A stretch of 43,385 nt of DNA from contig CAIOJO010000219.1 of the NCBI GenBank assembly GCA_903858635.1, forward strand, positions 1-43,385. The letters run 5' to 3'. Made by a program: the position numbers and the translations under genes. This stretch comes from an uncultured Telmatospirillum sp. (GTDB taxonomy: Bacteria > Pseudomonadota > Alphaproteobacteria > Rhodospirillales > Magnetospirillaceae). Shown in pieces: positions 1,149 to 42,541 of the stretch. Numbering within the stretch: position 1 is the stretch's first letter; the number at the start of each line of letters is the position of its first letter. The notes below the pieces were generated by a model that was given only the letters and a program-made list of their open reading frames with translations, did not search any database and was not told the origin of the DNA.

Positions 1149-1162
1149 CCGAGGCCTGCCGC

Positions 1163-11303: not shown

Positions 11304-11958
11304 CGAGCATCTCCAGGATTGATGTGGTCAGTCGCTGGATCTCTGCGGCGGCAGTAGAACCGGGAGCGAAGCCGCCGACCCAGTCGCCGGTGGTAAAGCA
11401 GTCGACGAATTTGGTCCGCAACCCGATTGCCGGCGCCACCGGCTCGCCGAAATCGCCGAGCGCCGCGGCGAGCTCGCGCCCGACCGCGGTGCGGGTGTCC
11501 ACCCGGCTGGGCACCAGCACCACCCGTGGCGCTCCCTGCCGGACGGCCCGTGCCGCTCGCACCAGTTCCAGCGCCCGCTGGGTGGCGAACAAGTCGGCAC
11601 CGCTCGGCGTGACCGGGACCAGCACCAAATCGGCCAGCATCACGGCGGCTTGGGTCGCTCCCTCCAGGCTGGGCGGGCAATCGATCACCGCGATCCCGGT
11701 CGCTCCGGCGGCCGCGATCTCGGCCCGCCAGTCGGCTGCGACGCTCTCCGCCCGCCACGGATGGGCCCGCACCGCCATCGGCAGCCGCCCGCGCTCGGCC
11801 CAAAGGGCGCTGGTGCGCTGCTGATCGGCGTCGAACAGCAGGACCTCGCGGCCTCGTTCCGCCAGCGCCGCGGCAAGGCTGACGGCGATGGTGCTCTTCC
11901 CAACTCCTCCCTTGAGATTGGCGCAGGCGATGACGCCACGGAATGGTGCAGCCCTCAC
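11275..11958 (-). CDS. Orphan ParA/MinD-family P-loop ATPase.
   Basis: Deviant Walker A ANLKGGVGKST near the N-terminus, and the Walker B region VIDCPPS. The GTG start overlaps the TGA stop of the upstream lipoprotein gene (GTGA). The long track ORF (to 12531) is an upstream extension in a frame overlapping that gene and is rejected. Confidence 0.75.
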   Translation of the reverse strand: MRAAPFRGVIACANLKGGVGKSTIAVSLAAALAERGREVLLFDADQQRTSALWAERGRLPMAVRAHPWRAESVAADWRAEIAAAGATGIAVIDCPPSLEGATQAAVMLADLVLVPVTPSGADLFATQRALELVRAARAVRQGAPRVVLVPSRVDTRTAVGRELAAALGDFGEPVAPAIGLRTKFVDCFTTGDWVGGFAPGSTAAAEIQRLTTSILEMLDGHPTEENA

Positions 11959-13466
11959 GGATGCGCGCCGGTAATGGTCAAGACATTGGTGCTCGGCAGC
12001 GATTTCGCTGATTTGTTCAGAATCAACAGTTCGTTCACCAGTCCGAGCACGAGACCGGACGCGCCGCCCTCCTCGATATCGGCGGGAACCCAGTAGCTGT
12101 GCCCCAGATAGTCGACGCCCACCAGCGGCTGCCCGCTTTCGGGACCCTGTTTGACCACGAACAGCTTGCCCGCCCGGTATTTGTAGCTCGCCACCGGCTG
12201 GTCCGGCGGACCGATGGGGACGGTAATGAAGCGCGGCGGCGCGCCGTCGGCCTTGAGCTGGAGTGCGGCCACCGAGCCGAGATAGGAGATGATCCCGGAG
12301 GTGGAGCGGGTGACGAACTCGTAGGAGACCGGGCAGTCCGGACGAAACGCCGGCAGGAACTGGCGCCCCTGGCCGTCGTGCTCTTCCGTCCATTTCTCGC
12401 TCAGCAGGCGGCCCAGATGCGGACCCACCATCATGCGCTCCATCTCGGCGGAATTGCCGGCCGCCGCTTCGGCTTGCGGCCCGCCCTTGCCGGGCTGCGG
12501 CGGCAGTGGATTGGCCGCCCTCTCCGCACAAGCCGCAGTCGTGCCTCCGGCACCGGGGGTCGGTCCAGCCGCCGGAGCGCCGCCCTGAACACGGGTTACC
12601 GCGCAGCGCAGCTGCTCGGGAATCCCCGAAAGCCGCTGTACGCGTTCGGATATTCCGAAGCAGAAGCGGTATTCCGGTCCGACCCGCTGCACTTGATAGA
12701 CCTCGGACAGCCCCTCCTTGCGGTACCGGGTCCGTTCGGCGTCATCAAGATTGTTGCCGCGATCGGCCACCGCCAGCTTGACCAGCCGCAGATCGGGCGC
12801 CGCCAGGGCGGCGAAGCGCCGGGGATCTTCGAGGTCGCGCGGCATCAGGCGGGGCCCGACATCGGCCCTTAGTAAATATGGTTCGGTGCTGATCTCCTGA
12901 TCGAGCAGGTCCTCCAGCACGCCTTCGAATTCAGCGTAGCGCTTCGGGTCCTCGGCGAAATTGCCGAAAGTCATCATGCGGCCGTCCTGACGAACCACGA
13001 TCTTTTCGATCACCAGACCGAGAAGGGCCGCATGGGGGAAATCCGCATGCATGTAGTAGTCGATGGTCTGCGGTTTGATGGGCGTCAGGATGCCCTGGTA
13101 GAATTCCTGGGTCTCCAGGACGCCGACGCTGTAAGTGGGACCTCCCGATGCCGTCGCCGAGGGACTGAAAATCGACGGAGCCAGTTGTCCGTTCGATCCG
13201 AACGGAAGGCTCAATGAGGCGCCCGCCGAGGTCAGCGCCTGCCCGGTCACCGATTCGAGGCCGGTGAATTCGAGGGGGCGGCGTTCGCTGGCCCGCACGA
13301 TATTGAGCAGCAGCCCCTGCTCCTGGGTCTTCTCCGCCTCGATATTGTAGCGCAGCGTACTGGCCGAGAATCCGTCGGCCACCGCGCACCCCGCCAGCAG
13401 ACTAGCGAGACCACAGGACAGAATTACGGCGCGCATCCGGCCGGCAACAGACACAATCTTCGACAT
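11955..13466 (-). CDS. Lipoprotein of unknown function, about 500 aa.
   Basis: Signal peptide with the lipobox LLAGC (MRAVILSCGLASLLAGCAV). The ATG at 13466 has an AAGGGGGG Shine-Dalgarno 9 nt upstream (the track used a TTG at 13472). No domain is recognisable by eye. Confidence 0.6.
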   Translation of the reverse strand: MSKIVSVAGRMRAVILSCGLASLLAGCAVADGFSASTLRYNIEAEKTQEQGLLLNIVRASERRPLEFTGLESVTGQALTSAGASLSLPFGSNGQLAPSIFSPSATASGGPTYSVGVLETQEFYQGILTPIKPQTIDYYMHADFPHAALLGLVIEKIVVRQDGRMMTFGNFAEDPKRYAEFEGVLEDLLDQEISTEPYLLRADVGPRLMPRDLEDPRRFAALAAPDLRLVKLAVADRGNNLDDAERTRYRKEGLSEVYQVQRVGPEYRFCFGISERVQRLSGIPEQLRCAVTRVQGGAPAAGPTPGAGGTTAACAERAANPLPPQPGKGGPQAEAAAGNSAEMERMMVGPHLGRLLSEKWTEEHDGQGRQFLPAFRPDCPVSYEFVTRSTSGIISYLGSVAALQLKADGAPPRFITVPIGPPDQPVASYKYRAGKLFVVKQGPESGQPLVGVDYLGHSYWVPADIEEGGASGLVLGLVNELLILNKSAKSLPSTNVLTITGAHP

Positions 13467-13467
13467 G

Positions 13468-13667
13468 GACAAGGACCCCCCTTCCCCAGTGCGGCCGACC
13501 GGCGGTCGCGGCCTGATCCAAGTGATAGTAATTCATAGTAGCGCCAAGATTCCCCGACGTATATAGTCAGGATTGTATCGATTGCGGCCGGACCCATGCC
13601 GGGTCTACATCAAAGTATATCCAACCTCACCGAGGGAACGCGGCGATCGGGAAAGGGAGGACAGGGC
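13468..13667. promoter_or_regulatory. AT-rich divergent intergenic region between the lipoprotein operon (minus strand) and the lipopeptide operon (plus strand).
   Basis: A local GC drop (agtgatagtaattcatagtagcg...gacgTATATAGtcaggattgtatcgattg) in an otherwise roughly 70% GC window. TATATAG at 13561-13567 is a -10-like element. Small hairpin GACCC-atgcc-GGGTC at about 13593-13607. Confidence 0.3.
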
Positions 13668-16600
13668 ATGGGATTGCTTTCGTACCCCTGGGACATACAG
13701 GGCTTTTCGGTCTTGCCTGAACATCGCCGCGAGACCCGATCCACCCCACTTCGCCTATTCCCGAAGACGGGCCTGCGGCTGACTGCCTGCCTCGCCTTCG
13801 CGATTGCCGGAGGGGTTCCCGGGCCGGTGACCGCCGGCATGAGCGAGACCCAGATTTCCCCCATCGCCCAGGCCACCCTCGATGCCTTGGTCGGCTCTTC
13901 CCTGGTGCCGGGCGCCACCGCCGGCCTGCGGTTCGCCGACGGCACCACCTGGCTCGGTGCGTCCGGCTATGCCGACGCCGCCCACACCCAGCTCCTGACG
14001 CCCTCCACCGAGATGCGCATCGGCAGCCAGACCAAGACCTATGTCGGCACCGTCGTCCTGCAACTGGTGGCCCAGGGCGCCATCGGCCTCAACCAGACCC
14101 TGGCCCAGTGGCTACCCTCGCTGAACGTTCCCAATGCGGCGCAGATCACCATCCAGGATCTCCTGGACATGCGCAGCGGCATTCCCGACTACCTGACGGT
14201 GCCGTCGCAGCATGCCGGCTATGCGGGCAAGACCATCCTCGACGAATGGGCGCTGACCGGGGGCCAGGCCGTCTATACGCCGACGCAACTGGTCACCGCC
14301 ACCAACGGCGTCGCCCGGACGACGCCGGCGCCGGGCGGGCAGATGAGTTACACCAACACCGATTTCGTCATCCTCGCCCTGATCGCCCAGCAGGCGAGCT
14401 GTCTCACTGCCACCGGCTGCCAATCCATCGAGACCATGGTCAATCAGGGGGTCATCGCCCCCCTCGGGCTGACCCATACGGTCTTCCCGACCAACTCCGC
14501 CTTCACCGGCACGTTCAGCAACGGCTATGTGTTCGCCGTTCCCGGGGCGCCGGTGACCGGCTTCGGCTCCTACGCCAATCCCGCCGCCACCGTTCCGGTG
14601 TCCTTCACATCGATCAATCCGGCGGTCCCCTGGGCCGCCGGGGCCATGCTCTCGACCTCCCAGGACGAACTGGTGTGGGTCGGCCAGCTTACCCGCAATG
14701 TCGCCGGTTTGTTGCCGGCCTCGCTCCAGGCGCAGCGGCTCACCCTGCTGCCCAATGCGGAGGTTGCCGGCTATCCGGCGGCCTACGGCCTCGGCATTTA
14801 CTCTCAAGTTTCGCCTCTGAACGGCGATGTCTTCCTGGGCCATGCCGGGTCGATACCGGGATATACCTCGGCCCCGTTCGAGAACACCACCCTCGGCATC
14901 GATTACGCCGTCAACGTCAATGCCTACCCGGCACCGGACGGCACCAGCGCGGTGACGGTGATGTGGCAGCTCGACCAGAACGTCGCCGGTGCCCTGGTCG
15001 CTTCCGGCAATTGCAGCAGCACGACGGCGGGCGCCGCCGGCACCGCCGCCTGTTCCGGCGACAGCGTCCGCCTGGCGCCGCTGACCTTGCAAGGGGGAAA
15101 CCTGACCATCGCCCCGTCGGGCAAGATCTACAACGGCTACGACAATCCGGTGTCGAACGCCGACGGCAGCGTCACCGTCACGCCGACCGCTCTGCCTGTT
15201 CCGACGGTCGCCTTCTACGGCGACAACCTGACCGGGATGAGCCTCGGCGGCGGTGCCGGGCTGACCATTCAGGCCGGTGCCCTGCTGTCGATGACCGGCA
15301 ACAATTCGGCCACCATCGCCCTCACCGGCACCGGCAATTCCGTCGCCGTCGCCGGCATGCTGCAGTCGATGGGCCTCAACGCCGCAGCGCTCAGCGATTC
15401 CGGATCCGGATCGACCATCACCCTGATGCCGGGCAGCGCGATCAACGCCCAGACCGGTGCCACCGGCGCGGCCATCATGCTGGCCGGCAGCAATGCCACG
15501 CTGACCGTCGGCGGCAGCGTGCAAAACCTCAATCAGTTCAGCTACGGCGCCCTGCTCTATCCCGCCTTGATCGACCGGGGCCACGGTTCACGGGTCACGG
15601 TGACGCCGACCGGGTCGCTGACCGGCGCGGTCGATCTGAGCCAATCCGACACCCGGCTGCGCCTCGATGGGATGATCGCCGGCAGTGTCACCATGGGCAG
15701 CAATGCGAGTTTGAGCGGATCAGGCACGGTTGCCGGCGCCGTGCAGGGTGGCACCATCCAGCCTGGCGATCCGGGCGGCACCGCGGCGCTGACGGTCGGC
15801 AGCCTCACCGGCGCCGGCACCACCCTGGCCTTCGACCTCACCGGTCCGCTGGCGCCGCTGGCGGTGACCACCGTCGCCAGCCTTACCGGTGGCGCCCTCG
15901 TCGCCACCCAGGCTCCCGCCGCCGGCACGGACGTGGCGACGGTGCTGCAGGCCGGGAGTGTCAGCGGCAACTTCGCCTCGGTAACGGCGCCGGGCCGCGT
16001 CGCCGCCACCGCCAATTACGGCGCCGACACCGTCCAACTGGCCACCGTCAGCCCGGCGCTGCTGGATGCCGAGACCTTCGCGGCACAGCATTCGATGCTC
16101 ACCCAACTCGACGCGGTCCGCGGGCGGCTCGCCGGCTTGCCTCGGGACGGGGAGAGTCCCGCCGCCACCAACACGGCCTCCGTCGAGGGCGGAGGCGGCG
16201 GCTTGGACGCCATGGGCAATGCGCTGGCTGCGGCGCCCCTGTCGGTTTCCGGCGCGAAGGGCACCGTATGGGGCCGTGGCTTCTATGAAGGCGGCCATCT
16301 GGGCGGCGCCGATGGGGTGAGTCCTTTCGCCGCCGGTGGCGGCGGCTTCCTGCTCGGTGCCGATACCACGATCACCGACGCAGTCACGGTGGGCGGGGCG
16401 TTCGGCTACGACCATCTGATCACCGGCCGCATTGGCGCCGGCGACCGTTTCGAGGGCTCGGCCTATTACGGCACGTTGTACGGCGCCTGGACACGGAAGT
16501 CGCTGTTCGTTCGCGGGGCGCTGCTGATGGGCGCCGGGGATGACAGCCTGACCCGCAGCACCAGCCTGGCCGGCTCCACTCTCCTTAGCCAGGCGCATCC

Positions 16601-17084
16601 CACCGATTGGCGGTTGGGGGCCGAGCTCAGCGCGGGAAAGGTGATTCCCGCCTATGGATTCGACATCGTGCCCAATCTCGGCCTGAGCTATCTGCGGGTG
16701 GACCAGCCGGCGGTCACCGACAGCGGCGCCGGCGCATTCAACCTGTCGACCGGCGGCCGGACGCCCGAGCTTCTGCGGATCCGCGCCGGTGCTGATCTCG
16801 ACCACACGAGCACCGCCGGCGGCCGCACGGTCAGGACCGATCTCCGTCTCGCCTACGCCCATGACAGCATGCTCGGCGGGCAGACGGCGACCGCCGCCTT
16901 CGCCGGATTCGGCTCGCCCTTCGCCTTGATCGGCAATGGCCATGACACCGACTCCGCGGTGATCGGCCTCGGCGCCCAAGTCAAACTCGACTCCGGCCTG
17001 TCGCTCGCCGCCGATTTCGAGGAGGATGTCTCCTCCGCCTCCTCCACCCGTTGGTTCATGGGCACCGTACGCTATGCTTTCTGA
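13668..17084 (+). CDS. Autotransporter (type Va) with a beta-lactamase-fold, S12-like serine hydrolase passenger.
   Basis: GGGAGG Shine-Dalgarno, then the ATG at 13668. Signal peptide LRLTACLAFAIAGGVPGPVTA. SxxK motif SQTK, YxN motif YTN, and an HxG-type third motif HAGSIPGY. A G/A/T/S-rich beta-helix-like stalk. The C-terminal beta-barrel ends in the aromatic terminus RYAF. Confidence 0.8.
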   Translation: MGLLSYPWDIQGFSVLPEHRRETRSTPLRLFPKTGLRLTACLAFAIAGGVPGPVTAGMSETQISPIAQATLDALVGSSLVPGATAGLRFADGTTWLGASGYADAAHTQLLTPSTEMRIGSQTKTYVGTVVLQLVAQGAIGLNQTLAQWLPSLNVPNAAQITIQDLLDMRSGIPDYLTVPSQHAGYAGKTILDEWALTGGQAVYTPTQLVTATNGVARTTPAPGGQMSYTNTDFVILALIAQQASCLTATGCQSIETMVNQGVIAPLGLTHTVFPTNSAFTGTFSNGYVFAVPGAPVTGFGSYANPAATVPVSFTSINPAVPWAAGAMLSTSQDELVWVGQLTRNVAGLLPASLQAQRLTLLPNAEVAGYPAAYGLGIYSQVSPLNGDVFLGHAGSIPGYTSAPFENTTLGIDYAVNVNAYPAPDGTSAVTVMWQLDQNVAGALVASGNCSSTTAGAAGTAACSGDSVRLAPLTLQGGNLTIAPSGKIYNGYDNPVSNADGSVTVTPTALPVPTVAFYGDNLTGMSLGGGAGLTIQAGALLSMTGNNSATIALTGTGNSVAVAGMLQSMGLNAAALSDSGSGSTITLMPGSAINAQTGATGAAIMLAGSNATLTVGGSVQNLNQFSYGALLYPALIDRGHGSRVTVTPTGSLTGAVDLSQSDTRLRLDGMIAGSVTMGSNASLSGSGTVAGAVQGGTIQPGDPGGTAALTVGSLTGAGTTLAFDLTGPLAPLAVTTVASLTGGALVATQAPAAGTDVATVLQAGSVSGNFASVTAPGRVAATANYGADTVQLATVSPALLDAETFAAQHSMLTQLDAVRGRLAGLPRDGESPAATNTASVEGGGGGLDAMGNALAAAPLSVSGAKGTVWGRGFYEGGHLGGADGVSPFAAGGGGFLLGADTTITDAVTVGGAFGYDHLITGRIGAGDRFEGSAYYGTLYGAWTRKSLFVRGALLMGAGDDSLTRSTSLAGSTLLSQAHPTDWRLGAELSAGKVIPAYGFDIVPNLGLSYLRVDQPAVTDSGAGAFNLSTGGRTPELLRIRAGADLDHTSTAGGRTVRTDLRLAYAHDSMLGGQTATAAFAGFGSPFALIGNGHDTDSAVIGLGAQVKLDSGLSLAADFEEDVSSASSTRWFMGTVRYAF

Positions 17085-18790
17085 GGGACCCGTCACCACG
17101 CTGGTTGAAGCCATTACGGCGCAACGGCGCAACGACCGCGTCCTTGCCCTGGTGTCGGGGACTGGGCGCACCACCCGGCGGACCTTCGCCGAACTCTACG
17201 CCGACGCGGCGCGGACCCTGGCCTGGCTGACCGCCTCGGGGCTGCGGCCGGGCGACGAACTGGTCCTGCTCATGGAGGATTACCCGCGCTTCGTCGGCAC
17301 CTTCTGGGCCTGCCTGCTGGGCGGCATCATCTGCGTCCCGGTGTCGCCGCCGACCACTGCCGATATCGCGCTCCGCATCCACCGCATCCTCGACGTCCTG
17401 GCCAGTCCCTGGCTGATGGCAAGCGCTCCCATGCGGGAGCGCCTGGCGGCAGCCGAGGGCCAGCGGCAGGAGCCGATGCAGGGACGGATGCTGGATCCGC
17501 CGACCTTGGACGAGACCGCGCCGCTGGCCGAGGCGCGTCCGGCAAGCGCCGACGACATCGCCTTCATCCAGTTCTCCTCGGGCTCCACCGGCCAGCCCAA
17601 GGGGGTCGTGCTGACCCATGCCAACCTGCTTGCCAACATCGCCGCGATCAAAGCCGGCGCCAAATTGGAGGAGACCGACCGGCTGGCGAACTGGATGCCG
17701 CTGACCCATGACTTCGGCATAATCTGGTTCCATATCATGCCGATGGTGCTGGGGCTCGACCATGCACTGATCCCGACACCGCTGTTCGTGCGCAACCCGC
17801 AGATCTGGTTGCGCACCATCGATTCCTTCAAGGCGACGGTGTCGGCCGCACCCAATTTCGCCTATCGCCACCTGCTCAAGCATCTGCGCAAGGAGATGCG
17901 GCGGGATTGGCGGCTGGACAGTCTGCGGCTGATCACCAACGGGGCGGAGCCCATCTCGGTGGGACTCGCCCGCAGCTTCGAAGCGGAGTTCGCCGGGGAC
18001 GGCCTGCGCGCCGGCGTGATCACTGCCGCCTACGGCCTGGCCGAAGGCACCTTGCTCGTCACCATGGCGGAACCCGGAACCGGCCTGCGGGAAATCGGCG
18101 TCGACCGCCGCGCCCTGTCCGCCGGCGACCGCGTCCGCCCGCTGCCCAACCGGGAGGACCCCGACCGCGCGGCCTTCGCCGAGGTCGGCCGGCCGGCTCC
18201 CGGCGTCGCCGTCCGCATCGCCGGCCAGGCGGATACACCCTGCGACGAGGGCATCGTCGGCCGCATCCAGATCCGCGGTCCTTGCGTGACGCCCGGCTAC
18301 TATCGCAATGAGCAGGCGACCCGGGCGGTGATGACCACGGATGGCTGGCTCGACACCGGCGATCTCGGCTTCATCGAGGACGGGAGTCTCTGTGTCACCG
18401 GGCGGCGCAAGGACGTGGTCATTCTGGGCGGGGCCAACTACTACCCACCGGATATCGAACGCGCCGCGGCGGATGTGCCCGGCCTCGATCTCAACATGGT
18501 GCTCGCCTGCGCCGTCCCTGTGGGCGAGGGCGAAGGCCTGGCTCTGTTCGCGCTGTTCCGCCAACCGATCGAGCAGTTCCCCGAACTGGCGCGCCAACTG
18601 CGCGACGCGGTGGTGCGCCAGATCGGGGTCCCGGTCGATTACTGCCTGCCGGTGACGCAGATCCCGCGCACCACCAGCGGCAAGGTGCAGCGCTACCGGT
18701 TGGCCGAGGACTTCAAGGCCGGCGTCTTCGCCGCCGAGATCGCCGCCCTGGAAGGATTCGAGCGGTCCGCCTATGCCCCCTTGCGCGACG
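17074..18790 (+). other. Fatty acyl-AMP ligase (FAAL) starter domain.
   Basis: [41 protein letters not shown], and GYYRNEQ...[11 protein letters not shown]...[20 protein letters not shown] (FAAL-type). Confidence 0.8.
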
Positions 18791-21700
18791 CCTGGCGCGC
18801 GGGTCGGCGGCGCGACCTCCTGGCGCGGCTCGGTGAGGAGGCGGGACGGCTGGTGCCCAGCGGCGCGGTAGCGGTCGACCAGCCGCTGATGAGCGCCGGC
18901 ATGACCTCGTTGCGCCTGGTCGAACTGGTCAGCCGGCTCAACACCGCCCTCGACCTGTCGCTGGCGGCCACCTTCCCGTTCGAATATCCGACGCTGGAGG
19001 ACATGGCCGAGGCCCTGCTCGGCATGCGCATCGCAAGCCAGGCGGAAGGCCCGGGCCCGACACAAGACTCTGGGGCGGGCGTTCCGCTTCGTGGCGAGGA
19101 TCGTCCGGGAGAGCCGATCGCCGTCATCGGCATCGGCTGCCGCCTGCCCAACGGCATCGACGGTCCCGACGCGTTGTGGAAACTTCTCGCCGAGGGCCGC
19201 GACACCGTCGGCCAGCCACCGGCCGGGCGCTGGCCCGACCCCTCGGCCGCCCCGGCGCCGGGATCCTGGCTGGCCGATCTCGACTTGTTCGACCACCGGC
19301 TGTTCCAGCTGTCGCCGGCCGAGGCCGCTGTCCTCGATCCCCAGCAGCGGCTGCTGCTGATGGTGAGCTGGCAGGCCTTCGAGGATGCCGGCATCGACCC
19401 GTTGGGTCTGCGCGGCAGCCGCACCGCGGTGTTCACCGGAATCACCAATCTCGACCAAGCCCGCTCCCAGGCCCGGGCCGGGCGCGAGGCGATGACCGGG
19501 CCTTACGCGGTGACCGGCGTATCGGCCAGCGTCGCTTCGGGCCGGCTGTCCTTCGTCTACGGTCTGGCCGGACCCAATCTCGCCATCGATACCGCCTGTT
19601 CTTCCGGGCTGGTGGCGGCGCATCAGGCGATGCGCAGTCTGCGGGCCGGCGAATGCGACCTCGCCCTGGCCGCCGCGGTCAATCTGATCCTGGTGCCCGA
19701 CACCCAACTGGGGCTTCAGGCGATGAACGCCCTGTCCCCCGACGGGCGCTGCAAGGCGTTCGACGCCCATGCCGACGGCTACGGCCGGGGCGAAGGCTGC
19801 GTCGTCCTGGTGATGAAGCGCCTGGCCGATGCAGTACGGGACGACGATCGGGTCCTGGGACTGCTGCAGGGCAGCGCCGTCAACCACGACGGCCGCAGCA
19901 GCGGGCTGACGGCGCCCAACGGCGCGGCGCAGCAGGCCGTCCTGCGGGCCGCCCTGGCCGACAGCGGCCTGGCCGGCAGCGCCATCGATTATGTCGAAGC
20001 CCATGGTACCGGCACGCCCCTGGGCGACCCGATCGAAGCCAATGCGCTGGGCGCCGTGTTCGGCGAAGACCGCCCGGCCGATCTGCCGCTGCTGGTGGGG
20101 TCGGTAAAGACCAATATCGGCCATCTCGAAGCGACAGCGGGTCTGGCCGGGCTGGTCAAGCTGCTGCTCGCCCTCGAGCATGGCCGCATCCCGCCCTCGC
20201 TGCATTTCAGCGAACCGAACCCGACCATTCCCTGGTCCGCCTTGGCGCTCGAGGTCACTGCCCAGGCGGTCGCCTGGACGGCCGGCCAGGACCGCCCCCG
20301 CCGGGCCGGGGTCAGCGCCTTCGGTTTCAGCGGCACCAATGTCCATGTCATCGTCGAGGAGGCAGCCGTCCCGGCGCCGCCGGCCAGGGTCGCCGGCCTT
20401 CCCCTGCTGCTGCCCTTGTCAGCGCGCAGCGACGCGGCCTTGGCCGCCATGGCCAAGACGACGGCCGCCGAACTGGCCGGCGCCGACGACGGCCGCCTCG
20501 TCGACCTCGCCTACACCCTGGCCACCGGACGCGCCGCCCTCGACCGGCGGATCGCGGTGGTCGGCCGCAGCAGCGCCGACCTTGCCGGCCGCCTCGAAGC
20601 GGCGGCGGCCAGACCGCAGCCGCCGGCCAGCGGCACGCCGGAGGTGATCTTCGCCTTTCCCGGGCAGGGTTCGCAAATGGCCGGGATCGCCGGCGAACTG
20701 CTCGCCCTGTCGCCGATCTTCCGCGACACCGTGGCCCGCGCCGATGCGGTCCTGGCACCCCGCCTCGGCCGGTCGCTGACCACGCTGCTGGCCGAATCCT
20801 GCAACGCCGCCGATTTGGCCCGCACCGGCCTCACCCAGCCGGTGGTGGTCGCCCTCGGCGTCGCGCTGGCGGCAATGCTTGAAGATTGGGGTATCCGGCC
20901 AACCGCCGTGCTGGGCCATTCGGTCGGCGAGATCGCCGCCGCCATCCATGCCGGAGCGATCGCCTTCGAGTCCGGCCTGGTCTTTGCCGCCGAACGGGGT
21001 CGGCTGATGGAGGGGCTGCCGGAAGGCGGCGCCATGGCGGCGGTGGTCGCCAGCGAGGACGAAGTGCGGGCGCTGCTCGACTCCGATCTCGCCCAAGATC
21101 TGGCCATCGCCGCCTTCAACGCCCCCAATCAGCTCACCATCTCCGGGCCGGCCGCGGCGCTGTCGGCATTCCGCGAACGCGCCTCGGCGCGCCACCTGCG
21201 GGTGGTGCCGCTGGCGGTGTCCCATGCCTTCCATTCGCCGCTGATCGAACCGGCCCTGCCCGAGCTCGCCCGCCTCGCGGCGCAATTGGTACCGGGCCGG
21301 CCGCGCCTGCCGGTCCATTCGACGCTGACCGGCGGCCTGATCGATCCCGCCGCCCTGACCGATCCCGATCATTGGCTGCGCCATGCCCGCCAGCCGGTGC
21401 GCTTTGCCGAAGCGCTGGGCTCGATTCCGCTGCGACCCGGGGCCTGCCTGATCGAACTCGGCGCCCGGCCGGCGTTGGGGCCGCTGGCGGCGCAGACGCA
21501 GCCTGATCTGCTCTGCCTGCCCGGCGCCAGTCAGGACGGCCTGGCTGTGGCGATGCTGGATTGCGCCGCCGCCCTGTTCATCGCCGGCACCGCCCTCGAC
21601 TGGCCGAGGCTTTACGCCGGCATTGGCGGCCGCCGGGTGCGGGCGCCCGGCTATGCCTTCGTCGAGCCGGTGCCGGCGGCTTCCCTGTTCACCGCGTCGG

Positions 21701-24700
21701 CGCCCCCGCCGTCCACCGGCGCAGGCAACGATCGAACGGTGACGGCGACGGTCACCGCCTTGCCCGTGACGGCGCCCGGCGCGACACCGCGTCCGGCGCG
21801 CCTGGCGGCGCGGCTGGTGGCGCTGGTGGCGGCGATCAGCGGGCTGCCCCCGGCCGACATCCCGCCGCGGACCAACTGGTTCGGATTCGGCCTCGATTCG
21901 CTGCTGCTGGTGCAGATCCAGCACGCGGTGAACCGGGAATTCGGCCTCGCCCTCACCCTGGCCGACCTGCTCAAGGACGGCGACAGCGTCGACGCCCTGG
22001 CCGGCCTGCTCGACCGCAGCCTGCCGGCCGAAGTCGTGCCGGCCGCGCTGCCGCCGGCCGCCGCCGCCGGGCCGGCATTGCCTGGCGATGTCGGCAGCTT
22101 GATGGCGCAGCAGGTCGAGGCGATGAGCCGGTTGTTCGCGCAGCAGCTCGACACCCTGAAGGACCTTGGCCGGGAAACTCCGGCGACGGCGGCCCCGCCG
22201 CCCGCGGCGAAGCCGAAGACCGGGCCGGAAGCGGGATCCGGCATCGAGATCAAAGGCCTGTTCCGCAAGATGCCGGCCCGGCGCGACGACTTCACCGGCG
22301 ACCAGATCGCCCATTTCGACCGGCTGGCGGTGCAATACGGGGCGCGGACCAAAGGTTCGAAGGACCACACCCAACGCCATCGCGGCCACTATGCCAACCC
22401 CCGCGCCATCATCGGCTTTCGCCCGGAATGGAAGGAGATGACCTATCCGCTCACCGTCGAGCGGGCGGAAGGGGCCCATGTCTTCGACGTCGACGGCAAT
22501 CGCTATGTCGACATCACCATGGGTTTCGGCGCCATCCTGCTTGGCCATACGCCCCCTTTCGTCGCGGCGGCAATCACCGCCGAGCTGGGGCGCGGCGCCC
22601 CGCTCGGACCGCAATCGCCCAAGGCCGGTGAACTCGCCGCGGTGATCGCCGAACTGACCGGAGTCGAGCGGGTGGCCTTCTTCACCACCGGCTCGGAAGC
22701 GGTGATGGTGGCGGTCCGCCTGGCCCGCTCGGTCACCGGCCGGCGCAAGATCGTGTTGTTCACCGGCGCCTATCACGGCACCTTCGACGGCGTGCTGGCC
22801 GCCGGTTGGGCGGACGGCGACAGCCTGGTCACTATTCCGGTCACCGACGGCACCCCGCAAAGCCTGGTCGACGACACCATCGTCCTGCGTTACGGCGACC
22901 CGGGCGCCCTCGACCGCATCCGGGCCCATGCCCAGGACATCGCCGCGGTGCTGGTGGAGCCGGTGCAAAGCCGCGACCCCGCCCTCCAACCCCACGACTT
23001 CCTGCATGCGCTGCGCGGCCTGACCCGGGACGCCGGCATCGCCCTGATCTTCGACGAGGTGATCCTCGGCTTCCGCGTCCATCCCGGCGGCGCCCAGGCC
23101 CATTTCGGCATCGAGGCCGATATGGTCACCTATGGCAAGATCGTCGGCGGCGGCCTGCCGATCGGCGTGGTCGCCGGCCGCCGGCAGTTCCTCGACGCGG
23201 TCGATGGCGGTGCCTGGTCCTATGGCGACGATTCGCTGCCGGCAGCGCGCACCGCTTTCGTCGCCGGCACCTTCAACGGCCACGCACTGTCGATGGCCGC
23301 CGGCCTGGCTGTGCTCGATCATCTGCGCAGCGCCGGCCCCCGGCTGCAGCAACGGCTGAACGAACGCACCGCCCAGTTCTGCGCCGAACTCGACGGCTTC
23401 TTCGCCGCCGAGCGGGTGCCGATCCGCATGGCGCATTTCTCCTCGCTGTTCCGCTTCGAGTTCACTCCGGGGACCGAACTTCTCAACACCCATCTGCTGA
23501 ACAACGGCGTGTTCGTCTGGGAGGGCCGCAACTGCTTCCTCTCCACCGCCCATGACGATGCCGATCTCGCCACCATCGTCGCGGCGGTGCGTCACGGCGT
23601 CGCCGAGATGCGCCGGGACCTGATGATCCCGGTGGCGGAGACGCCGGCCGAACCGGACGCGCCGATCCCCCTGTCGCAGGTGCAGCGCGAGATCTTCTTC
23701 CTGGCCGCCGCCAACGAAGCGGCCGGGCGCGCCTATCACGAAATGGTGGCGCTCGACCTGCAGGGCCCCTTCGACGCCGGCGCCATGGATCGCGCCGTCC
23801 GCCGCCTGGCGGCACGCCACCAGGCGCTGGGCATGGCCGCCGTCGACGGCGAGACCTGGCGGCCGGCCGCAGCCCCGTTGTCGCTGCCGGCCGCCAGCGA
23901 GATTGGCCCGGCGCCCGAAGCGCTGCGCCAGGCGCTGGCCGCGGAGATCGACCGGCCCTTCGATCTCGCCGCCGGTCCGCTGCTGCGCTTGGCCCTGCTG
24001 CGGCGGGGCCCGGACCATCATTGCCTGGCTCTGACCGCCCATCACATCGCCGTCGACGGCTGGTCGCTGGGCCTGCTGACCGGCGAGCTGGGCGCCCTGT
24101 ACGGGGCCGAGCGGCAGGGACAGCCCCTGGATCTACCGCCCGCCGCGCCGTTCGGCGAATTCGTGCAGTGGGCCGCCCAACTGGCGCCCGCCGCTGCCGG
24201 CAAGCGTCTGCCGCCGCTCGACTTGCCGGCGCTGGGGGCGGCGGACGACAGCGGCCGGGCCCGGCGGCTGCATCGCCGCGATCCGGCGGCGCCCGACGGG
24301 GGCCGGCTGTTGGCCCAGCTCAAGCGCTTCGCCCGCGACCAGGGCGCCAGCCCGTTCGCCGTCCTGCTGGCCGCCTTCACCGCCTTTTTCGGCCGCTTGG
24401 CCGGCCAGGGCAGCTTCGCCGTCGGCATGCCCTATGCCGGCCACGCCGCCGCCGGATTGCCGGTCATGGTCGGCCAGGCCTCGGTAATCCTGCCGATCCC
24501 GGTGAGGCTGGACCCCGCGCTGAATTTTGCCGAGCATTTGCGCCACAGCAGCGACGCCCTGGCCGAGGCGCTGCAGGGCGCCCTCGATCTGATGCGCCCC
24601 GGCACCCCGGTGCGCGCGCCGATCACCGCCTTGGTCAACATGGATCGCGGTGTCGAGGTGACCTTCGACGGGCTGACGGTGGACTGGGTATCGGCGCCGG

Positions 24701-27700
24701 CGATCCGCGCCAAGCACGGCCTGTTCCTCAACCTGCTCGAGTTCAACGGCAGCGCGCTGTTCGATTTCGATTGCGACGGCGCAATCGCCGATGCCGAAAC
24801 CGCCGAACTGTGGTTCGACGGCCTGCTCGCCCTGCTGGCCGCCGCCATCGCCACGCCGCAGATGGCGCTGGGCGCCCTGCCGATGCCGGCGGTCGCCGAC
24901 CGGACCCGGCCGGCGGATCGCCCGCGGCACCGCCGGCCCCGCAACATCGAACCGCCCGCCACGGCGGAAGAGGCCCGGCTGGCGGCGATCTGGGCCGAGG
25001 CCCTCGGCCTGGAGGAGGTCGGCGTTACCGAATCCTTCTTCGATCTCGGCGGCCACAGCCTGGCCGGGCTGGCCATCCTCAGCACCATCGAGCGGCAGAC
25101 CGGCCGCAGGGTGCCGATTCGCCTGTTCTTCGAAGGACCGTCGGTGCGGGCGCTGGCGGCGGCCCTCGGCCGGACGGAAGACCCAGCCCCGGCCATCCGA
25201 CCGACGCCGGAAGCAGCCGATTACCCTGCTTCCAATGCCCAGGCGCGGCTGTGGATGCTCGAACAGCTCAATCCCGGGCTCACCGCCTATAACGTCGGGA
25301 TCGGGCTATGGAGTCCGGCGCCACTGGATCCGGCGGTGGTCCGCCGCAGCCTGGCGCGGTTGGCGGAGCGCCATGAAAGCTTGCGCACCGCCCTGATCGA
25401 GCGGGATGGGCTGCCGCGCCAGAAGATTGCCGCAACCATCGCCCTGCCGCTCGCCGAACGGGCCGTCGCCGACCGGGCCGCCGCCATCCTGGAGGCGCAG
25501 GCCCTGGCCGCCGCCCCGTTCGACCTGGCGGAAGCGCCCCTCTGGCGGGCCCTGCATCTGAAGCTCCCGAACCAGGACTGCCTGCTCCTGGTGCTCCACC
25601 ACAGCATTTGCGACGTCTGGTCGATGACGGTCCTGGTCCGCGACTTCGTCGCCTTTGCCCAGGGGGCCGATCCGTCGCCCCTGCCGATCCAGTTTCGCGA
25701 TTACGCGGCCCAACCGCAGCGACCGACAGACAGCGATCCCGATCTCGCTTATTGGCGGGACCAGCTTGCCGGGCCACCGGCCTTCCTCACTCTGCCGAGC
25801 GACCATCCGCGCCCGGCCGTCAAGGGTTACGACGGCGCCCGGGTCCGCACCAGACTATCGGCGGCGATGGCCGAACGCGTGCGGGCACTGGCGGCGGACC
25901 ACGGCACCAGCCTGTTCGTGGTGCTGGCGGCAGCGCTCAAGGCATTGCTGCATCACCGCACCGGCGAGAGCGACCTCACCATCGGCACGGTGGTGGCCGG
26001 GCGGGAACAGGCCCTGCTCGACGATCAGATCGGTTTCTTCGTCAACACCCTGCCGCTGCGCGACCGCATCGACCCCAAGGCCGGCTTCGACCGGCTGGTG
26101 GCGCAGCTGCGCCGGACGGTGCTGGAAGCATTCGAGCATCAAGCGGTGCCTTTCGAGCAGATCGTCGAGGCCTTGCCGCGCGACACGGCGCGCAACCCGC
26201 TGTTCGAGATCATGCTGGTGATGGACGACCGCCAAGGCATCCGTGCCGCCGGAGCGCCGCTCGGACTGGAACCCTTCGAGATCGAATTGCCGACCGCCCA
26301 ATTCGACGTCACCCTCTACGTCACCGACGAGCCCGCCTTCATCGACCTGCACACCGTCTACAACAGTCGCCTGTTCAAGGAAGAGCGCATCGCGGCGTTG
26401 ATGGCGGATTTCGGCCTGCTGCTCGACCAGGTCACCGAGCAACCCGAGACTCCGGTGGCGGCATTGGCGTCCACAACCGTCCTCGCCAACAGCCATCAGG
26501 AGCGCCTGTGGTTCGTCGACCGCTTCGAGCGGGGCGTGCTCTACCCGTCCGGCCCCACCTACTACAATATGCCGCTGGCGGTGGAAATTGCCGCCGGCTT
26601 CGATGGCGACCGCCTGCGGCAGGCGCTGGCAGAACTGTCCGGGCGCCATCCGGCGCTGCGCACCGCCTTCCTCGAAGACAGCGAGACTCCGCTGCTCCGT
26701 GTTGCCCGGCAAGGCGATCCGGTGCCGCTGCGGGAGCTGTCTTCGGTGGCCGATCCCCTTGCCGCCGTCATCGCCGAATCCCAGGTGCCGTTCCGCCTGG
26801 CCACCGCCCCCCTGTGCCGCGCCATCCTGGCCCGCCGGCCGGACGGCAGCGGTCTGTTGGCGCTCGCCGCCCATCACGCGGTGACCGATCCGGTGGGTCT
26901 GCGGCACCTGCTGGCCGATCTGCTGGCGCTGACCGCCGATCCCGCCGCCCCGCCGCCGGCGCCGGCCACCGAACCCGTAACGGCTGTCGACGAGGCCGAA
27001 GCCGCCGCCTATTGGCATGAGGCGCTGGCCGGTGCGGCCCCCTTGGTCCTGCCGACCGACCGGCCGCGGCCGGGAATCCACCTCTACGAAGCCGGGCGCA
27101 CCGCCTTCACCCTGCCCGCCGCCCTGCTGCGTCGGCTCGATGCCGCGGCCAGCGAGCGCGGGCTGGCCCGCTGCGACCTGCTGCGCGCCGCCTTCCAGAC
27201 CCTCCTGCACCGCTTGTCCGGTCAGAGTGATATCGTCCACGGGGAACCGCTGCATCGGGCCCATTTCCCCGCCAATCTGCTGGTACTGCGGAGCGATCCG
27301 GGCGCCGCAGCGAGCCTCGCGGCACTGGCCGCCCGGGGGCGGGTCGAACGCGCCGCGGCCGAACGGCATGGGGCAATGGCCTTCGACCGCGTCGTACTGG
27401 CCGTCAAACCGCAGAACGATATGAGCCGCACCGCCCTGTTCGACGTGCTGTTCGACGACGGAGAGGGAGAGCTTGCCGGACTGGCCGACCCCAGCTTGAT
27501 CGATCCGGGTCTGGGCTGGGGCAAATACGATCTCGTGCTCTGCTTGCGGGGCGCCGGCGAGGACCTGTCGGTCAGTCTGGTCTTCAACCGGCTGTTGTTC
27601 GACGACGCCAGCGCCGACCGCATCGCCGAATTGTTCCGCCGACTGGCCGAGGCGGCAGCGAACGACCCGGACGCGCCGCTGGCGTCGGTCGACCTGCTCG

Positions 27701-30700
27701 GAGCGGCGGCACGCTTTGCCCTGGCCGAGTCGCTGGCGGTGCCGGCCCCGCAGCGGACGGATGCGACGATTCCCAGCCTGTTCCGGGCGGTGGCCGCGGC
27801 GCGCGGCGAGGCCATCGCCGTAACCGACGGCGAGCGCCAGATCAGCTATCGCCAACTCGACCGTGCCGCCCAGGCCATCGCCGCCCGCTTGCGCGCCGCC
27901 GGCATTGGCCGGGACAGTCGCGTCGGGGTGATCATGGAACGCGGCGCCGAACTGATCGCCGCCTTCCTCGGTATCCTCGACGCCGGCGCCGCCTATGTGC
28001 CGATCGATCCCGAGCTGCCCCCGGACCGCATCCGCTTCGTGATCGCCGATGCCGGCCTTGGCGCCCTTTGTGTCGCCGCCGGGACGGGAACCGGGTTGCA
28101 ACAGCTGGACGTCGCCCTGCCGGTCGTCGCAATCGACCGGGTGGAAATGCTGGTGGCAACCCCGGCGCCGCCGGCGGCGCCGGGAACCAGCGATTCCGCC
28201 CCCGAGGATCTCGCCTATGTGATCTACACCTCGGGCTCCACCGGCCAACCCAAGGGGGTGGCCATCGAACATCGCAACGTCGTCCAGCTGCTGTTTCAGG
28301 ACGGCCTTCCCTTCCGCTTCGATGCCGCCGATGTGTGGACCTTGTTCCATTCGCCCAGCTTCGACTTCTCGGTGTGGGAAATGTACGGCGCCCTCCTGTT
28401 CGGCGGCCGGCTGGTGGTGGTCAGGCGCCATCAGGCGGCCGACCCGGCGGCGATGGTCCGCCTGCTGGCGGGCGAGGGCGTGACCGTGCTCAATCAGACC
28501 CCGACGGCATTCCAGGGCCTGAGCGAAGCGGCCCTGGCCGAGGCGCCGCAGCCCCTCGCCCTGCGTTTGGTGATCTTCGGCGGCGAAGCGCTGCAGCCGG
28601 CCGGGCTGGCGCGCTGGCGGGACCGCTACCCGGCGGTGCGGCTGGTCAATATGTACGGCATCACCGAAACCACCGTCCATGTCACCTGGGCGGAGATCGG
28701 CGACGCCGAGATCGCCACCGGTCAATGCCTGATCGGCAGGCCGCTGCCGACCTATGGCCTGGTGCTGGTCGATACGGCGCTGCGCCCGGTGCCGGACGGC
28801 CTGCCCGGGGAAATCTGCGTTACCGGGCCTGGCCTGGGGCGCGGCTATCTCAACCGGCCGGAGCTGACCGCCGAGCGTTTCCTCGCCCTGCCGGATTTCC
28901 CCGGTCGTCGCTTCTATCGCTCCGGCGATCTCGCCTGGCGGCGTGGCGACGGGGCGCTGATCTACCTCGGCCGCCGCGACGACCAGGTGAAGATTCGCGG
29001 CTTCCGCATCGAGTTGGCCGAGATCGAGCGGCAGCTTCTGGGACAGGCCGAAATCCGTCAGGCGGTGGTGCTGCCGGAACCGTCCGATGGCGGCCGCAGC
29101 CTGACCGCCTGGCTGGTCGCCGCCTCCGCCCTCGCCGGCGGCCTGAATGGCGAGACGGTCCACCGCCATCTCGGCGACAAGCTGCCGGCCTATATGATTC
29201 CCTCGCGCTTCGTCGAGTTGCCGGCCATACCGCTGACCCGCAACGGCAAGATCGATCGGCGGGCACTCGGCGGCGCCTCCGGCCGCGTCCTCGCCACCGT
29301 GCGCGGCGGCGCACCGGCAACGGATGGACTCGAACGGACCATCGCCACCATCTGGCAGGAAATTCTTGGCGGAGCCCTGCCGGGCCGCGAGGATAATTTC
29401 TTCCTGTTGGGCGGCCACAGCCTGCAGGCCAACCAGGCGGTGGTGCGCCTGCGCCGCGCCTGCGGCTGCGCCCTGAGCCTCAAGGATTTCTTCAGCGCAC
29501 CCTCGCTCGGCGCCTTGGCCACCCTGATCCGCTCCGGCGCGGCGCAGGCGGGCGGCGACCAGCCGCAGACGATCACCCGCGCCGAAGCCATTGAGGGCAG
29601 TTATCCGTTGTCGCCGGCGCAGCGCCGCTTGTGGTTGCTGCAATCGCGGGACCCGCGGACCCTCGCCTACAACATGGTGGGAGCCTTCCGGATCGACGGA
29701 GCCCTGGACCGCGAAACGCTTGCCCGCGCCTTCGCCCAACTGCTCGCCCGCCATGAAGTGTTGCGCAGCCGTTTCGTCGAACGGCGCGGCGAACCCCGCC
29801 AGGTTGTCCTGCCCGCGCCGGCGAAGTTTGCCCTGCCCTCGACCGTGGTGGCGGCAGCCGATCTCGACCAAGCCATCGATCGGGTGGTGGCCGAGGAACT
29901 GCGCCATGTTTTCGATCTCGGCCGCGGCCCGCTGCTGCGCGCCCGGCTGATCGCCGCCGCCGGCAGCAACGGCGAGGGCCATTACGGGCTGGTTCTCAAT
30001 ATGCACCATATCGTCGCGGACGGCTGGTCGGTGACCGTGCTGCTGAACGATCTCGCCCGCCTTTACGGCGGCGGCGACCTGCCGCCCCTTCCCGTCCAAT
30101 ACAAGGATTATGCCGCCTGGCAAACCGCACTGCTGGCCGACGGCAGCCTGGCCACCCAGCGCGCCTATTGGCATGCCCGCTTCGAGGATGAACCGGCGCC
30201 GCTCGACCTGCCGCTCGACCGTCCGCGAGCGGCCCAGCCGAGCCAGGCCGGCGCTTTGCTGCAGGTCCGCCTCGAACCGGCACTGGCGGCAGCGCTGGAA
30301 GCAAGGGCACGGGCCGCGGATTGCAGCTTGTTCATGCTGCTGCTGGCGATTCTCCAGGTGCAGCTGCATGCCCTTTCCGGCGCCGACGAAGTGGTCATCG
30401 GCACCCCGGTGGCCGGGCGCAACCATGTCGATCTCGAGGCGCAGATCGGCTTTTATCTCAACCTGCTGCCGCTGCGGCTCGGCCTCGGCGGCGCCAGCCG
30501 CTTCTCCGAGCTGTTGGCCAGCGCCCGCGCCGTCGCTCTCGACGCCTTCGCCCACCAGGATTATCCCTTCGACCGCCTGGTGGAAGAGCTCGCCCCCGTC
30601 CGCATCCCCGGCCGCCAGCCGCTGTTCGACCTGCTGCTGATCCTCCAGAACAACGATCCACCGCGACTGGCGCTGCCCGGGGCACGGACGGAATTGCTGC

Positions 30701-40229: not shown

Positions 40230-40929
40230 CCGATCTGTTTCCTGGCCACAGCCCGGCCAGATTCATGTCTGGTACTGCCGGCAGGACTCCGCGACGGAGC
40301 CGGCGGCCGACACGCTCGATGCGGCCGAGCGGGAGCAGGCGGGGCGGTTCCGCAATCGCCACGACGCCCGGCGCCATATGGCGACCCATGGCGCCTTGCG
40401 CCGTATCCTCGCCGCCTATCTGGGGCTTGATCCCGCCGCCGTGCCGATCACCCGCAGCGCCGCCGGCAAGCCCCGGCTCGGTCTGTCCGGCGCAGAACCC
40501 GGCTTGACCTTCAACCTGTCCCACAGCGCCGATCTGGCCGCCGTCGCCGTCGCCGCGGGGGCAGAGATCGGAGTCGATATCGAGGAGAAGCGGCCCTTGG
40601 CAGATCTGGATGGCGTCGCCCGCCTGGTCTTCACCGAGGCGGAATGCGCCGCCCTGGACTCCCTGCCGCAATCGCGACGACTCGACGCCTTCTATGAGTG
40701 CTGGACCCGCAAGGAGGCGTTGCTCAAGGCGATGGGCAGCGGCCTGCTGCGCGATCCGCGGGAGGTCGGACTGGGGTTCGGGGAAGGCGGCAAGATGGAA
40801 TTCCGTGACGCCGATTCCAGCCTGTGGTCCATCGCCCCGCTTGCCCCGCCGGAGGGGATGGGCGGAGCGGTGGCCATCCAGGGCCGACTCCTCGGAGTCC
40901 TGCAGTTTGACGGCGCACCGGGGAAGTAA
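40216..40929 (+). CDS. Sfp-type 4'-phosphopantetheinyl transferase.
   Basis: GKPRL, FNLSHSADLA, GVDIEEKRP, ECWTRKEALLKAMG. The proposed TTG start at 40216 has a GGAGA Shine-Dalgarno 7 nt upstream and overlaps the NRPS stop by 14 nt. There is no in-frame ATG or GTG before the conserved N-terminal region. Confidence 0.75.
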   Translation: MSATDRSVSWPQPGQIHVWYCRQDSATEPAADTLDAAEREQAGRFRNRHDARRHMATHGALRRILAAYLGLDPAAVPITRSAAGKPRLGLSGAEPGLTFNLSHSADLAAVAVAAGAEIGVDIEEKRPLADLDGVARLVFTEAECAALDSLPQSRRLDAFYECWTRKEALLKAMGSGLLRDPREVGLGFGEGGKMEFRDADSSLWSIAPLAPPEGMGGAVAIQGRLLGVLQFDGAPGK

Positions 40930-42300: not shown

Positions 42301-42340
42301 GGCCCTTCTGATCTGCTGGTTCGGGTGCCGGAGAGGACCC

Positions 42341-42507: not shown

Positions 42508-42541
42508 TCACGGCACCCGCCGGCCGGTTCCGCTCATGGCG

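Follow-up and report, generated by a model that had tools for sequence, protein, structure and literature searches.

A 43,385-base contig from an uncultured Telmatospirillum species (CAIOJO010000219.1 of assembly GCA_903858635.1; over its full length, the window) carries a gene for a large multidomain synthetase. The N-terminal region of this protein, at positions 17074-23634, is very probably the loading and first-extension part of a hybrid polyketide synthase-nonribosomal peptide synthetase (PKS-NRPS) for a lipopeptide, situated in a high-GC diderm and predicted to follow the established MycA-type route; we hold its substrates with less confidence. The domain content and order, the catalytic motifs, the clade membership and the conserved synteny are directly observed. 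An earlier note on this DNA had placed a fatty acyl-AMP ligase (FAAL), an acyl carrier protein (ACP), a ketosynthase (KS), an acyltransferase (AT), a second ACP and an aminotransferase (AMT) at 17074-23620. Pfam recovers every one of these domains, in that order, at the N-terminus of a 4629-amino-acid PKS-NRPS, and the noted end lies within 15 nucleotides of the end of the AMT at 23634.

Domain architecture of the synthetase

The synthetase is encoded by one unbroken open reading frame (ORF) on the plus strand, which starts at 17026 or 17074 and ends at 30963. The ATG at 17074, overlapping the stop of the upstream gene by 11 nucleotides, is the likely start; it agrees with a 4629-amino-acid gene call on a sibling contig (L002), the domains of which are 99-100% like those of the window. 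Residue numbers are counted here from 17026, and Pfam was run on the whole protein and on ten overlapping pieces. The order of families over the full synthetase is AMP-binding, PP-binding, KS (N- and C-terminal halves together with the KS-AT linker families), Acyl_transf_1, PP-binding, Aminotran_3, Condensation, PP-binding, Condensation, Condensation, AMP-binding, PP-binding and Condensation, with domain E-values far beyond chance. The GC content of the window is 63-73%, and that of third codon positions (GC3) is 0.86, typical of real genes at the locus.

Every catalytic motif quoted in the earlier note is present, and the residues occupy the catalytic columns of alignments with solved structures. 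These are DTACSS (Cys858, nucleotide 19588), HGTGT (His993) and NIGH (His1033) in the KS, GHSVGE (Ser1299, nucleotide 20914) and HAFH (residues 1400-1403, nucleotide 21223) in the AT, and YGKIVGGG (Lys2038, nucleotide 23131) in the AMT. The KS-AT portion aligns end to end with CurL (4MZ0, E 8e-199) and with DEBS modules. The catalytic Cys, His and His are in register with both, which disposes of the suggestion that the KS might lack its activity motifs on alignment. GHSVGE and the malonyl-type VSHAFHS are likewise in register with CurL, the AT of which carries VSHAFHS too. The KS is 47-55% identical to KSs located behind FAAL-ACP in Ralstonia, Burkholderia, Calothrix, Chitinophaga and Acidobacteriota, and 38-39% identical to those of Bacillales. 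A Pfam scan of the short gap between the AT and the second ACP (only ~95 amino acids) found no ketoreductase (KR), dehydratase (DH) or enoylreductase (ER); because the module holds none of these, a beta-keto intermediate would persist. The AMT ends at residue 2200, and the first condensation domain (C1) starts at residue 2214.

The aminotransferase domain

The best match to the AMT among solved structures is the AMT of MycA, from mycosubtilin synthase (6KFM/6KFR/6KFU; E 2e-146, 491 bits, 50% identity over 451 residues), and the two align around the active-site lysine as TYGKIVGGG and TYGKIIGGG, respectively. The best structure of a glutamate-1-semialdehyde aminomutase (GSAM) scores 211 bits. 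Among the matches listed from species-representative genomes, 58 assembly-line-type relatives are 41-61% identical to the AMT of the window and 22 stand-alone HemL-like genes are 31-38% identical, with a clear gap between the two sets. The HemL proteins share with it the class III fold and the region of the pyridoxal phosphate (PLP) lysine, but they are free-standing proteins of ~430 amino acids that form a separate clade, and the HemL-like genes listed have no PKS or NRPS neighbours.

A neighbour-joining tree of 70 near-complete sequences, from which gappy rows had been removed, divides 57 assembly-line AMTs (including that of the window) from 13 HemL-like proteins in 200 of 200 bootstraps, a support that falls to only 56/200 when partial sequences are included. 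The clustering with GSAMs that the earlier note had named as its own possible undoing is therefore not what the tree shows. Within the assembly-line clade, the AMT of the window pairs with that of a Marivita metagenome-assembled genome (MAG; 199/200 bootstraps), and it retains the PLP lysine together with 56 invariant columns.

The acyl ligase and its starter acid

The N-terminal acyl ligase (AL), or FAAL, domain is fused to an ACP, as expected of an iturin-type loading region. Its closest characterised relative is the ItuA/MycA-type AL of a Bacillus mexicanus locus (L013; 405 bits, 38.6% identity), which we assign to the iturin family because its AMT is 88% identical to that of MycA and its first adenylation (A) domain is of the Asn type. 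Relative to E. coli FadD, the AL of the window has an insertion of ~22-30 residues that is common to ItuA, RmyA and the other FAAL domains aligned. The feature taken as the test of a FAAL, a FAAL-specific insertion of ~20 amino acids after the YGLxE motif, is present. Solved FAALs, namely 3PBK, 3KXW and FadD32, are among its structural matches. The fused ACP, together with a phosphopantetheinyl transferase gene in the cluster, would be consistent with acyl-AMP transfer to a holo-ACP and rejection of CoA.

Proposed hand-over of the chain and classes of condensation domain

Six condensation (C)-like domains were clustered together with 39 others whose context is known. C1 groups with C domains that follow AMTs, and its best local matches are likewise of this kind; C2, C4 and C5 are ordinary LCL-like domains. 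The domain designated C3* carries HHAVTDPVG, its downstream motifs are degenerate, and it clusters with nothing but its counterpart in the Marivita MAG (L007). It is placed between the ordinary LCL domain C2 and the A domain for Thr.

The earlier note had C1 condensing the beta-amino product. This step needs revision, as C1 probably does not join the chain to an amino acid: what comes next is T1, a thiolation (T, carrier) domain without an A domain, as in ItuA. ItuA's first C domain has been proposed to load the beta-amino fatty acid onto the first peptidyl carrier protein (PCP), and the second to join it to Asn (PMC11751314). By analogy, the peptide bond to Thr would be made further on, by C2 and/or C3*. 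An A-less C-T also follows the AMT in the ItuA-type synthetase of L013 and in the Viridibacillus (L010), Marivita (L007) and Azospirillum (L088) loci; in Ralstonia RmyA, Chitinophaga, Calothrix and Aliikangiella, C-A-T comes after the AMT and there is no A-less C-T. A Paenibacillus locus (strain UNC499MF; L009, 5297-18061) has an A-domain-like fragment of ~130 amino acids between the post-AMT C and T domains, which suggests that a C-A-T module decayed to give the A-less C-T of iturin-type lines.

Other interpretations of this part of the protein were considered and set aside. The A-less C-T is no anomaly, being the norm for iturins to judge from L013 and the literature (PMC11751314). The domain after T1 is not an epimerase (E), since its clustering and motifs are those of an LCL-type C domain and it is the second synthetase (NRPS2) that ends in the true E. 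A role for C3* as an interface domain that recruits a TauD hydroxylase for Asp is unsupported: the next A domain is of the Thr type, and the TauD of the window has no match to the TauD of the Azospirillum cluster.

The downstream assembly line

Specificity codes were read against the GrsA reference, as verified on 1AMU. The first A domain has a Thr code (DFWNIGMVHK), and the code of the second A domain of NRPS2 (DAATIAAVCK) is Tyr/Phe-like. The terminal domain of NRPS2 is an epimerase; it clusters with E domains and carries the motifs PLTAIQRWFF, EGHGRDE, RTVGWFT and FNYLGDF. No thioesterase (TE) is present in the window. Past its right end, a 58,450-nucleotide sibling contig (ERZ1426847) encodes a 1318-amino-acid C-A-T-TE protein, a type II thioesterase (TEII) and a TauD dioxygenase. 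On a short contig (L089, 3-3272, minus strand), the N-terminal part of this final synthetase shows a DCL-type C domain (FHHILLDGWC) and an A domain with an Asp code (DLTKIGHIGK). As the last module lies beyond the right end, the window holds an incomplete biosynthetic gene cluster (BGC).

Four A domains are predicted in all, for Thr, X, a Tyr/Phe-like residue and Asp, and the line differs in this from those for iturin-type heptapeptides (Asn-Tyr-Asn-...), which a TE closes through the beta-amine. None of the codes read for the predicted A domains is of the Asn type. From these genes the product is predicted to be beta-amino fatty acid-Thr-X-D-(Me)Tyr/Phe-(possibly hydroxy)Asp, which the TE would set free. 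An AsnB gene lies between the two synthetase genes; such a gene also follows the Marivita synthetase and another is found near that of Viridibacillus.

Proposed route and alternative explanations

In the route that we infer, the N-terminal FAAL would adenylate a free fatty acid and load it onto the first ACP (ACP1), and the cis AT would load malonate onto the second (ACP2). The KS would condense both to a Cn+2 beta-ketoacyl-S-ACP2, in which, with no KR, the ketone would stay, and the MycA-clade AMT would convert this to beta-aminoacyl-S-ACP2. C1 would hand the beta-aminoacyl chain to the A-less T1, as proposed for ItuA; C2, helped or modified by the degenerate C3*, would join the chain to Thr, to be followed by the X residue and then by a methylated aromatic residue epimerised to D. 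The third synthetase, past the window, would add Asp (probably hydroxylated by the adjacent TauD), and its TE would release the product. Homology and architecture support the succession that the earlier note had set out, from fatty acid activation through malonyl extension by two carbons and beta-keto transamination to the NRPS. The chain length, the amino donor, the parts played by C1 and T1 and the product, like the substrates, are provisional assignments.

Several points weigh against this interpretation. Product and chemistry are predictions from genes, and the role of C1 and T1 has the standing of a proposal even for ItuA. We know of no code that matches that of the first A domain of NRPS2 (A1, DVRHLALLAK; 32901-34394, plus strand), which bears a distant likeness to codes of the hydroxyphenylglycine type. 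Among solved structures, the AL is closest to a keto-acid-selecting A domain (6ULX/6ULW, 284 bits) and McyG (4R0M, 253 bits), with the E. coli FAAL 3PBK lower (220 bits). Because these best solved relatives are not classical FAALs, the fatty-acid starter is argued from the identity to the ItuA AL and from the architecture. The same ranking would suit a module whose primer is a carboxylic acid other than a fatty one (aryl, short-chain or alpha-keto) and whose beta-amino acid product would be Adda- or Ahp-like and not lipidic. However, the AL scores higher on the ItuA/MycA-type AL than on any of these structures, carries the FAAL insertion when set against FadD and, as in MycA and RmyA, is joined to an ACP and a KS. 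The KS is most similar to KSs found behind FAAL-ACP, and we consider such a primer improbable. Only slightly better placed, though still unlikely, is the idea that T1 is loaded in trans with an amino acid, in which case C1 would be truly peptide-forming and the product one residue longer. A-less modules loaded in trans exist in other NRPSs, the HHxxxDG of C1 is intact, and both an AsnB gene and the unassigned A1 are close by; but the iturin-family synthetase has the same C-T, the number of alpha-amino acids in iturin equals exactly that of its A domains, the first C domain of that line is described as loading the beta-amino acid onto the first PCP (PMC11751314), and no free-standing A domain occurs within the window.

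Class III aminotransferase domains are routinely auto-annotated as glutamate-1-semialdehyde aminotransferases, and the AMT could on that account be taken for a GSAM-like aminomutase or an inactive relic that leaves the beta-keto group on the chain. The gap in score between MycA and the GSAMs, the bootstrap separation from HemL-like proteins, the retained lysine and invariant columns and the lack of PKS context at HemL-like loci make this hardly credible. It is also very improbable that the locus is decaying, or a chimeric product of assembly, and makes nothing. The contig is metagenomic, and on the sibling contig ERZ1426847 the synthetase is called in three pieces of 2470, 2070 and 127 amino acids, which counts against our interpretation and points to assembly errors or strain-level frameshifts. 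The window itself has an unbroken ORF of 4629 codons with all catalytic motifs and the GC3 of a real gene, the 4629-amino-acid gene is called on another assembly, and AsnB, NRPS2 and the flanking proteins are identical in up to 10 contigs, which come from several independent assemblies.

Comparison with known systems and distribution

The earlier description of the module as iturin-type holds for the AL domain, the clade of the AMT and the A-less C-T, but not for the AT, which in the window is in cis. The large protein of L013 has the order FAAL-T-KS-T-AMT-C-T-C-A-T-C. It lacks an AT domain, and the gene for a discrete AT lies just upstream. As in the window, MycA and ItuA combine AL/FAAL-ACP-KS-...-ACP-AMT with an A-less C-T and C-A-T-C, and have no reducing domains; identities to the window are 50% for the AMT, 38.6% for the AL and ~39% for the KS. 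Beyond their discrete AT (FenF/ItuD), these Bacillus systems differ from the diderm cluster in lacking a counterpart of C3* between C2 and A, in their first amino acid (Asn, against Thr in the window) and in the number of A domains (seven, against the four predicted here).

RmyA, which directs synthesis of ralsolamycin/ralstonin from the megaplasmid of Ralstonia solanacearum, resembles the window in having FAAL-ACP-KS-AT(cis)-ACP-AMT on one polypeptide in a high-GC proteobacterium, and its first A domain has the same code (DFWNIGMV.K). Identities are 54-56% for the AMT, 52% for the KS, 41% for the AT and only 33% for the FAAL. RmyA has ~400 amino acids between the AMT and the next C domain (gap 2341-2754), where a monooxygenase has been reported (PMC4989320), and continues directly with C-A-T; the window has no such insert. 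RmyA also has many more modules, and its accessory genes (MbtH, an MBL hydrolase and an ABC exporter) are different. Burkholderia sp. FXe9 has a FAAL-primed PKS that feeds an NRPS, with an AMT 54% identical to that of the window and with TauD and E/DCL domains nearby, as here. Its several KS modules are on separate proteins, its AMT is on an ACP-AMT protein of its own, reducing domains are annotated and there is no A-less C-T; presumably this locus is of the occidiofungin type. Puwainaphycin-type systems (PMC4219810) and a Calothrix locus (L011) share the FAAL start, KS-AT-ACP-AMT and the logic of lipopeptides with a beta-amino fatty acid, with AMTs 50-53% identical, but belong to another phylum, spread the domains over several proteins and pass directly from the AMT to C-A-T. 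By these comparisons the module is best described as a mosaic, in which the cis-AT PKS core is RmyA-like and both the acyl ligase and the C-T hand-over are iturin-like.

Closer counterparts occur in other loci. The Marivita MAG encodes a FAAL-T-KS-AT-T-AMT-C1-T-C2-C3*-A-T-C4 protein followed by an AsnB gene, as in the window. FAAL-T-KS-AT-T-AMT is also found on a further contig (L087), which stops inside the AMT, and in Azospirillum sp. TSH100 (L088), where it goes on with C1-T-C. A search of the literature turned up no product ascribed to the Azospirillum-type cluster. Exact protein look-ups of the synthetase with both starts gave no match, and two of three homology searches returned only fragments or generic NRPSs, from an index that seemingly contains no proteins above ~2400 amino acids.

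The earlier note had called this mechanism rare and its occurrence outside Bacillus unusual; neither view survives a broader survey. More than 3780 of 8000 candidate proteins scored match the AMT at E<=1e-10, at least 595 of 600 pattern matches in one-genome-per-species contigs encode AMT relatives, and 137 Ralstonia plasmid records match, all at ~52-54% identity among the matches listed. Modules of this kind are spread over several phyla and many MAGs. Among the loci fetched, FAAL-primed versions come from Beta-, Alpha- and Gammaproteobacteria, Bacteroidota, Cyanobacteria, Acidobacteriota and Bacillales, and FAAL-KS-AT-AMT modules were found in Ralstonia (RmyA), Burkholderia, Calothrix, Chitinophaga, Aliikangiella, Acidobacteriota, Marivita and Azospirillum. 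In the literature, RmyA is a FAAL-KS-aminotransferase starter described as 'very similar' to MycA (PMC4989320), ralsolamycin and the occidiofungins stand among the FAAL-primed products of Pseudomonadota in a 2025 review (PMC11837247), and the puwainaphycins are the cyanobacterial case (PMC4219810). The starter logic is thus published for Gram-negative producers, abundant in genomes and no surprise to a specialist. Since the machinery is known and widespread in Gram-negatives, the locus is an ordinary, if uncharacterised, representative of a known class, which annotation of the antiSMASH type should detect as a hybrid PKS-NRPS. Mildly new are the cis AT joined to the iturin C-T step, the extra C3*, the conserved D-peptidase autotransporter and the short peptide.

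Flanking genes

The gene that overlaps the start of the synthetase (Table 1) encodes an exported protein with a signal-like N-terminus, in which an S12 passenger with intact SQTK, YTN and HAG motifs is fused to an autotransporter barrel. The best structural matches of the passenger are alkaline D-peptidase 4Y7P, the Streptomyces S12 peptidase 3WWX and the R61 DD-peptidase. This fusion is uncommon (5/14 homologues found), yet such a gene also adjoins the FAAL synthetase in L087, again with an 11-nucleotide overlap, and in Azospirillum. S12 D-stereospecific peptidases inactivate or remodel nonribosomal peptides that contain D-residues (PMC12903863 and work cited there), and the assembly line is predicted to install a D-aromatic residue; a role in extracellular processing or self-protection may reasonably be proposed. 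A SurE-like offloading cyclase of the penicillin-binding-protein (PBP) type was rejected, since the signal-like N-terminus and full barrel mark the protein as exported and a TE module and TEII lie past the window. Nor are the delipidating acylases of lipopeptide siderophores a parallel, those being Ntn hydrolases and not S12 enzymes.

Taken further, these observations could tentatively be read as a small alphaproteobacterial family of iturin-like pathways. Its product would be processed outside the cell by a surface-displayed, translationally coupled S12 D-peptidase that cuts beside the D-aromatic residue and thereby activates a pro-form or shields the producer, and C3* would join the condensation superfamily as a new, non-canonical member. 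We regard this as possible, though rather less than likely.

Table 1. Features of the window in positional order
Feature	Position	Strand	Evidence or remark
505-amino-acid predicted lipoprotein, LLAGC lipobox	11955..13472	-	divergent from peptidase gene
Exported S12 (beta-lactamase-fold) D-peptidase passenger with autotransporter barrel	13596..17084	+	Pfam Beta-lactamase 95-426, Autotransporter 891-1141
FAAL/acyl-ligase (AL) domain	17074..18795	+	Pfam AMP-binding, residues 32-426, E 1e-62
ACP1	18817..19050	+	PP-binding ~611-664; Ser628 in AGMTSL; local T-domain hidden Markov model (HMM)
Ketosynthase	19111..20208	+	ketoacyl-synt 696-1061, E 6e-77 and 2e-43; Ketoacyl-synt_C
KS-AT linker	20215-20610	+	KAsynt_C_assoc, CurL-like linker
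Cis acyltransferase, malonyl type	20650..21525	+	Acyl_transf_1 1209-1469, E 1e-52; GHSVGE, HAFH
ACP2	21811..22011	+	PP-binding 1596-1662; Ser in GLDSL; local T-domain HMM
PLP-dependent aminotransferase (AMT) domain	22288..23634	+	Aminotran_3 1807-2131, E 2e-49; Lys2038
C1, post-AMT condensation-type, HHIAVDGWS	23665..24945	+	Pfam Condensation; clustering
T1, carrier without cognate A domain, GGHS	24976..25167	+	Pfam PP-binding
C2, ordinary LCL-like, HHSICDVWS	25216..26466	+	Pfam, clustering
C3*, divergent/degenerate C-like, HHAVTDPVG	26479..27708	+	Pfam 167 bits; clustering
A domain, code DFWNIGMVHK (Thr)	27781..29250	+	Pfam; specificity code
T2	29338..29529	+	Pfam
C4, LCL-like, C-terminal half of module split over two proteins	29593..30864	+	Pfam, clustering
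AsnB-family glutamine amidotransferase, starts MCGIVG	30968..32845	+	GATase_7 and Asn_synthase; TIGR01536 467 bits, above cut-off
NRPS2: A1(DVRHLALLAK)-T3-C5-A2(DAATIAAVCK)-T4-E	32880..40229	+	Pfam, codes, clustering
Methyltransferase embedded in NRPS2 A2	37440-38489	+	domain scan
Sfp/HetI-type phosphopantetheinyl transferase	40216..40929	+	Pfam ACPS, AASDHPPT_N; NCBIfam HetI-like below cut-off; 237-amino-acid call on sibling contigs
Band_7/SPFH protein, 55-amino-acid ORF, DUF697 membrane protein	40936..43099	-	Pfam, gene calls

The 505-amino-acid lipoprotein has no Pfam or NCBIfam match, and a homologue stands at the same place in L087 (591 bits). At the other end, the Band_7/SPFH protein, 55-amino-acid ORF and DUF697 protein, a set also found beside the Azospirillum cluster, may be partners in membrane protection or export. 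The autotransporter barrel and a TonB C-terminal domain in the window indicate a diderm host.

A ParA-family partition ATPase region (11275-12531, minus strand) adjoins the cluster, which hints at a plasmid, chromid or island location. The TauD-family dioxygenase of the window (6370-7395, minus strand) gave no match to the TauD that accompanies the Azospirillum cluster and probably plays no part in the BGC. At 528-2338 (plus strand), an ORF for a pyruvoyl-dependent arginine decarboxylase overlaps a 441-amino-acid Orn/Lys/Arg decarboxylase ORF; the latter extends over no more than profile positions 1-214 of 417, half of the major domain, and may be truncated or frameshifted. The PPK2 of the window is 70-74% identical to alphaproteobacterial and Azotobacter homologues.

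Implications

None of these results overturns current understanding. Lipopeptides with a beta-amino fatty acid, which include the iturins, ralstonins, occidiofungins and puwainaphycins, serve as membrane-active antifungals and as interaction signals, and the locus adds to them what is predicted to be a short, four-residue alphaproteobacterial version with a cultured relative in Azospirillum sp. TSH100. The ItuA-type A-less C-T step occurs outside the Bacillales as well and is compatible with a cis-AT PKS, a combination that informs both the evolution and the engineering of loading regions. The D-peptidase autotransporter offers a concrete, testable lead on the extracellular processing of lipopeptides.

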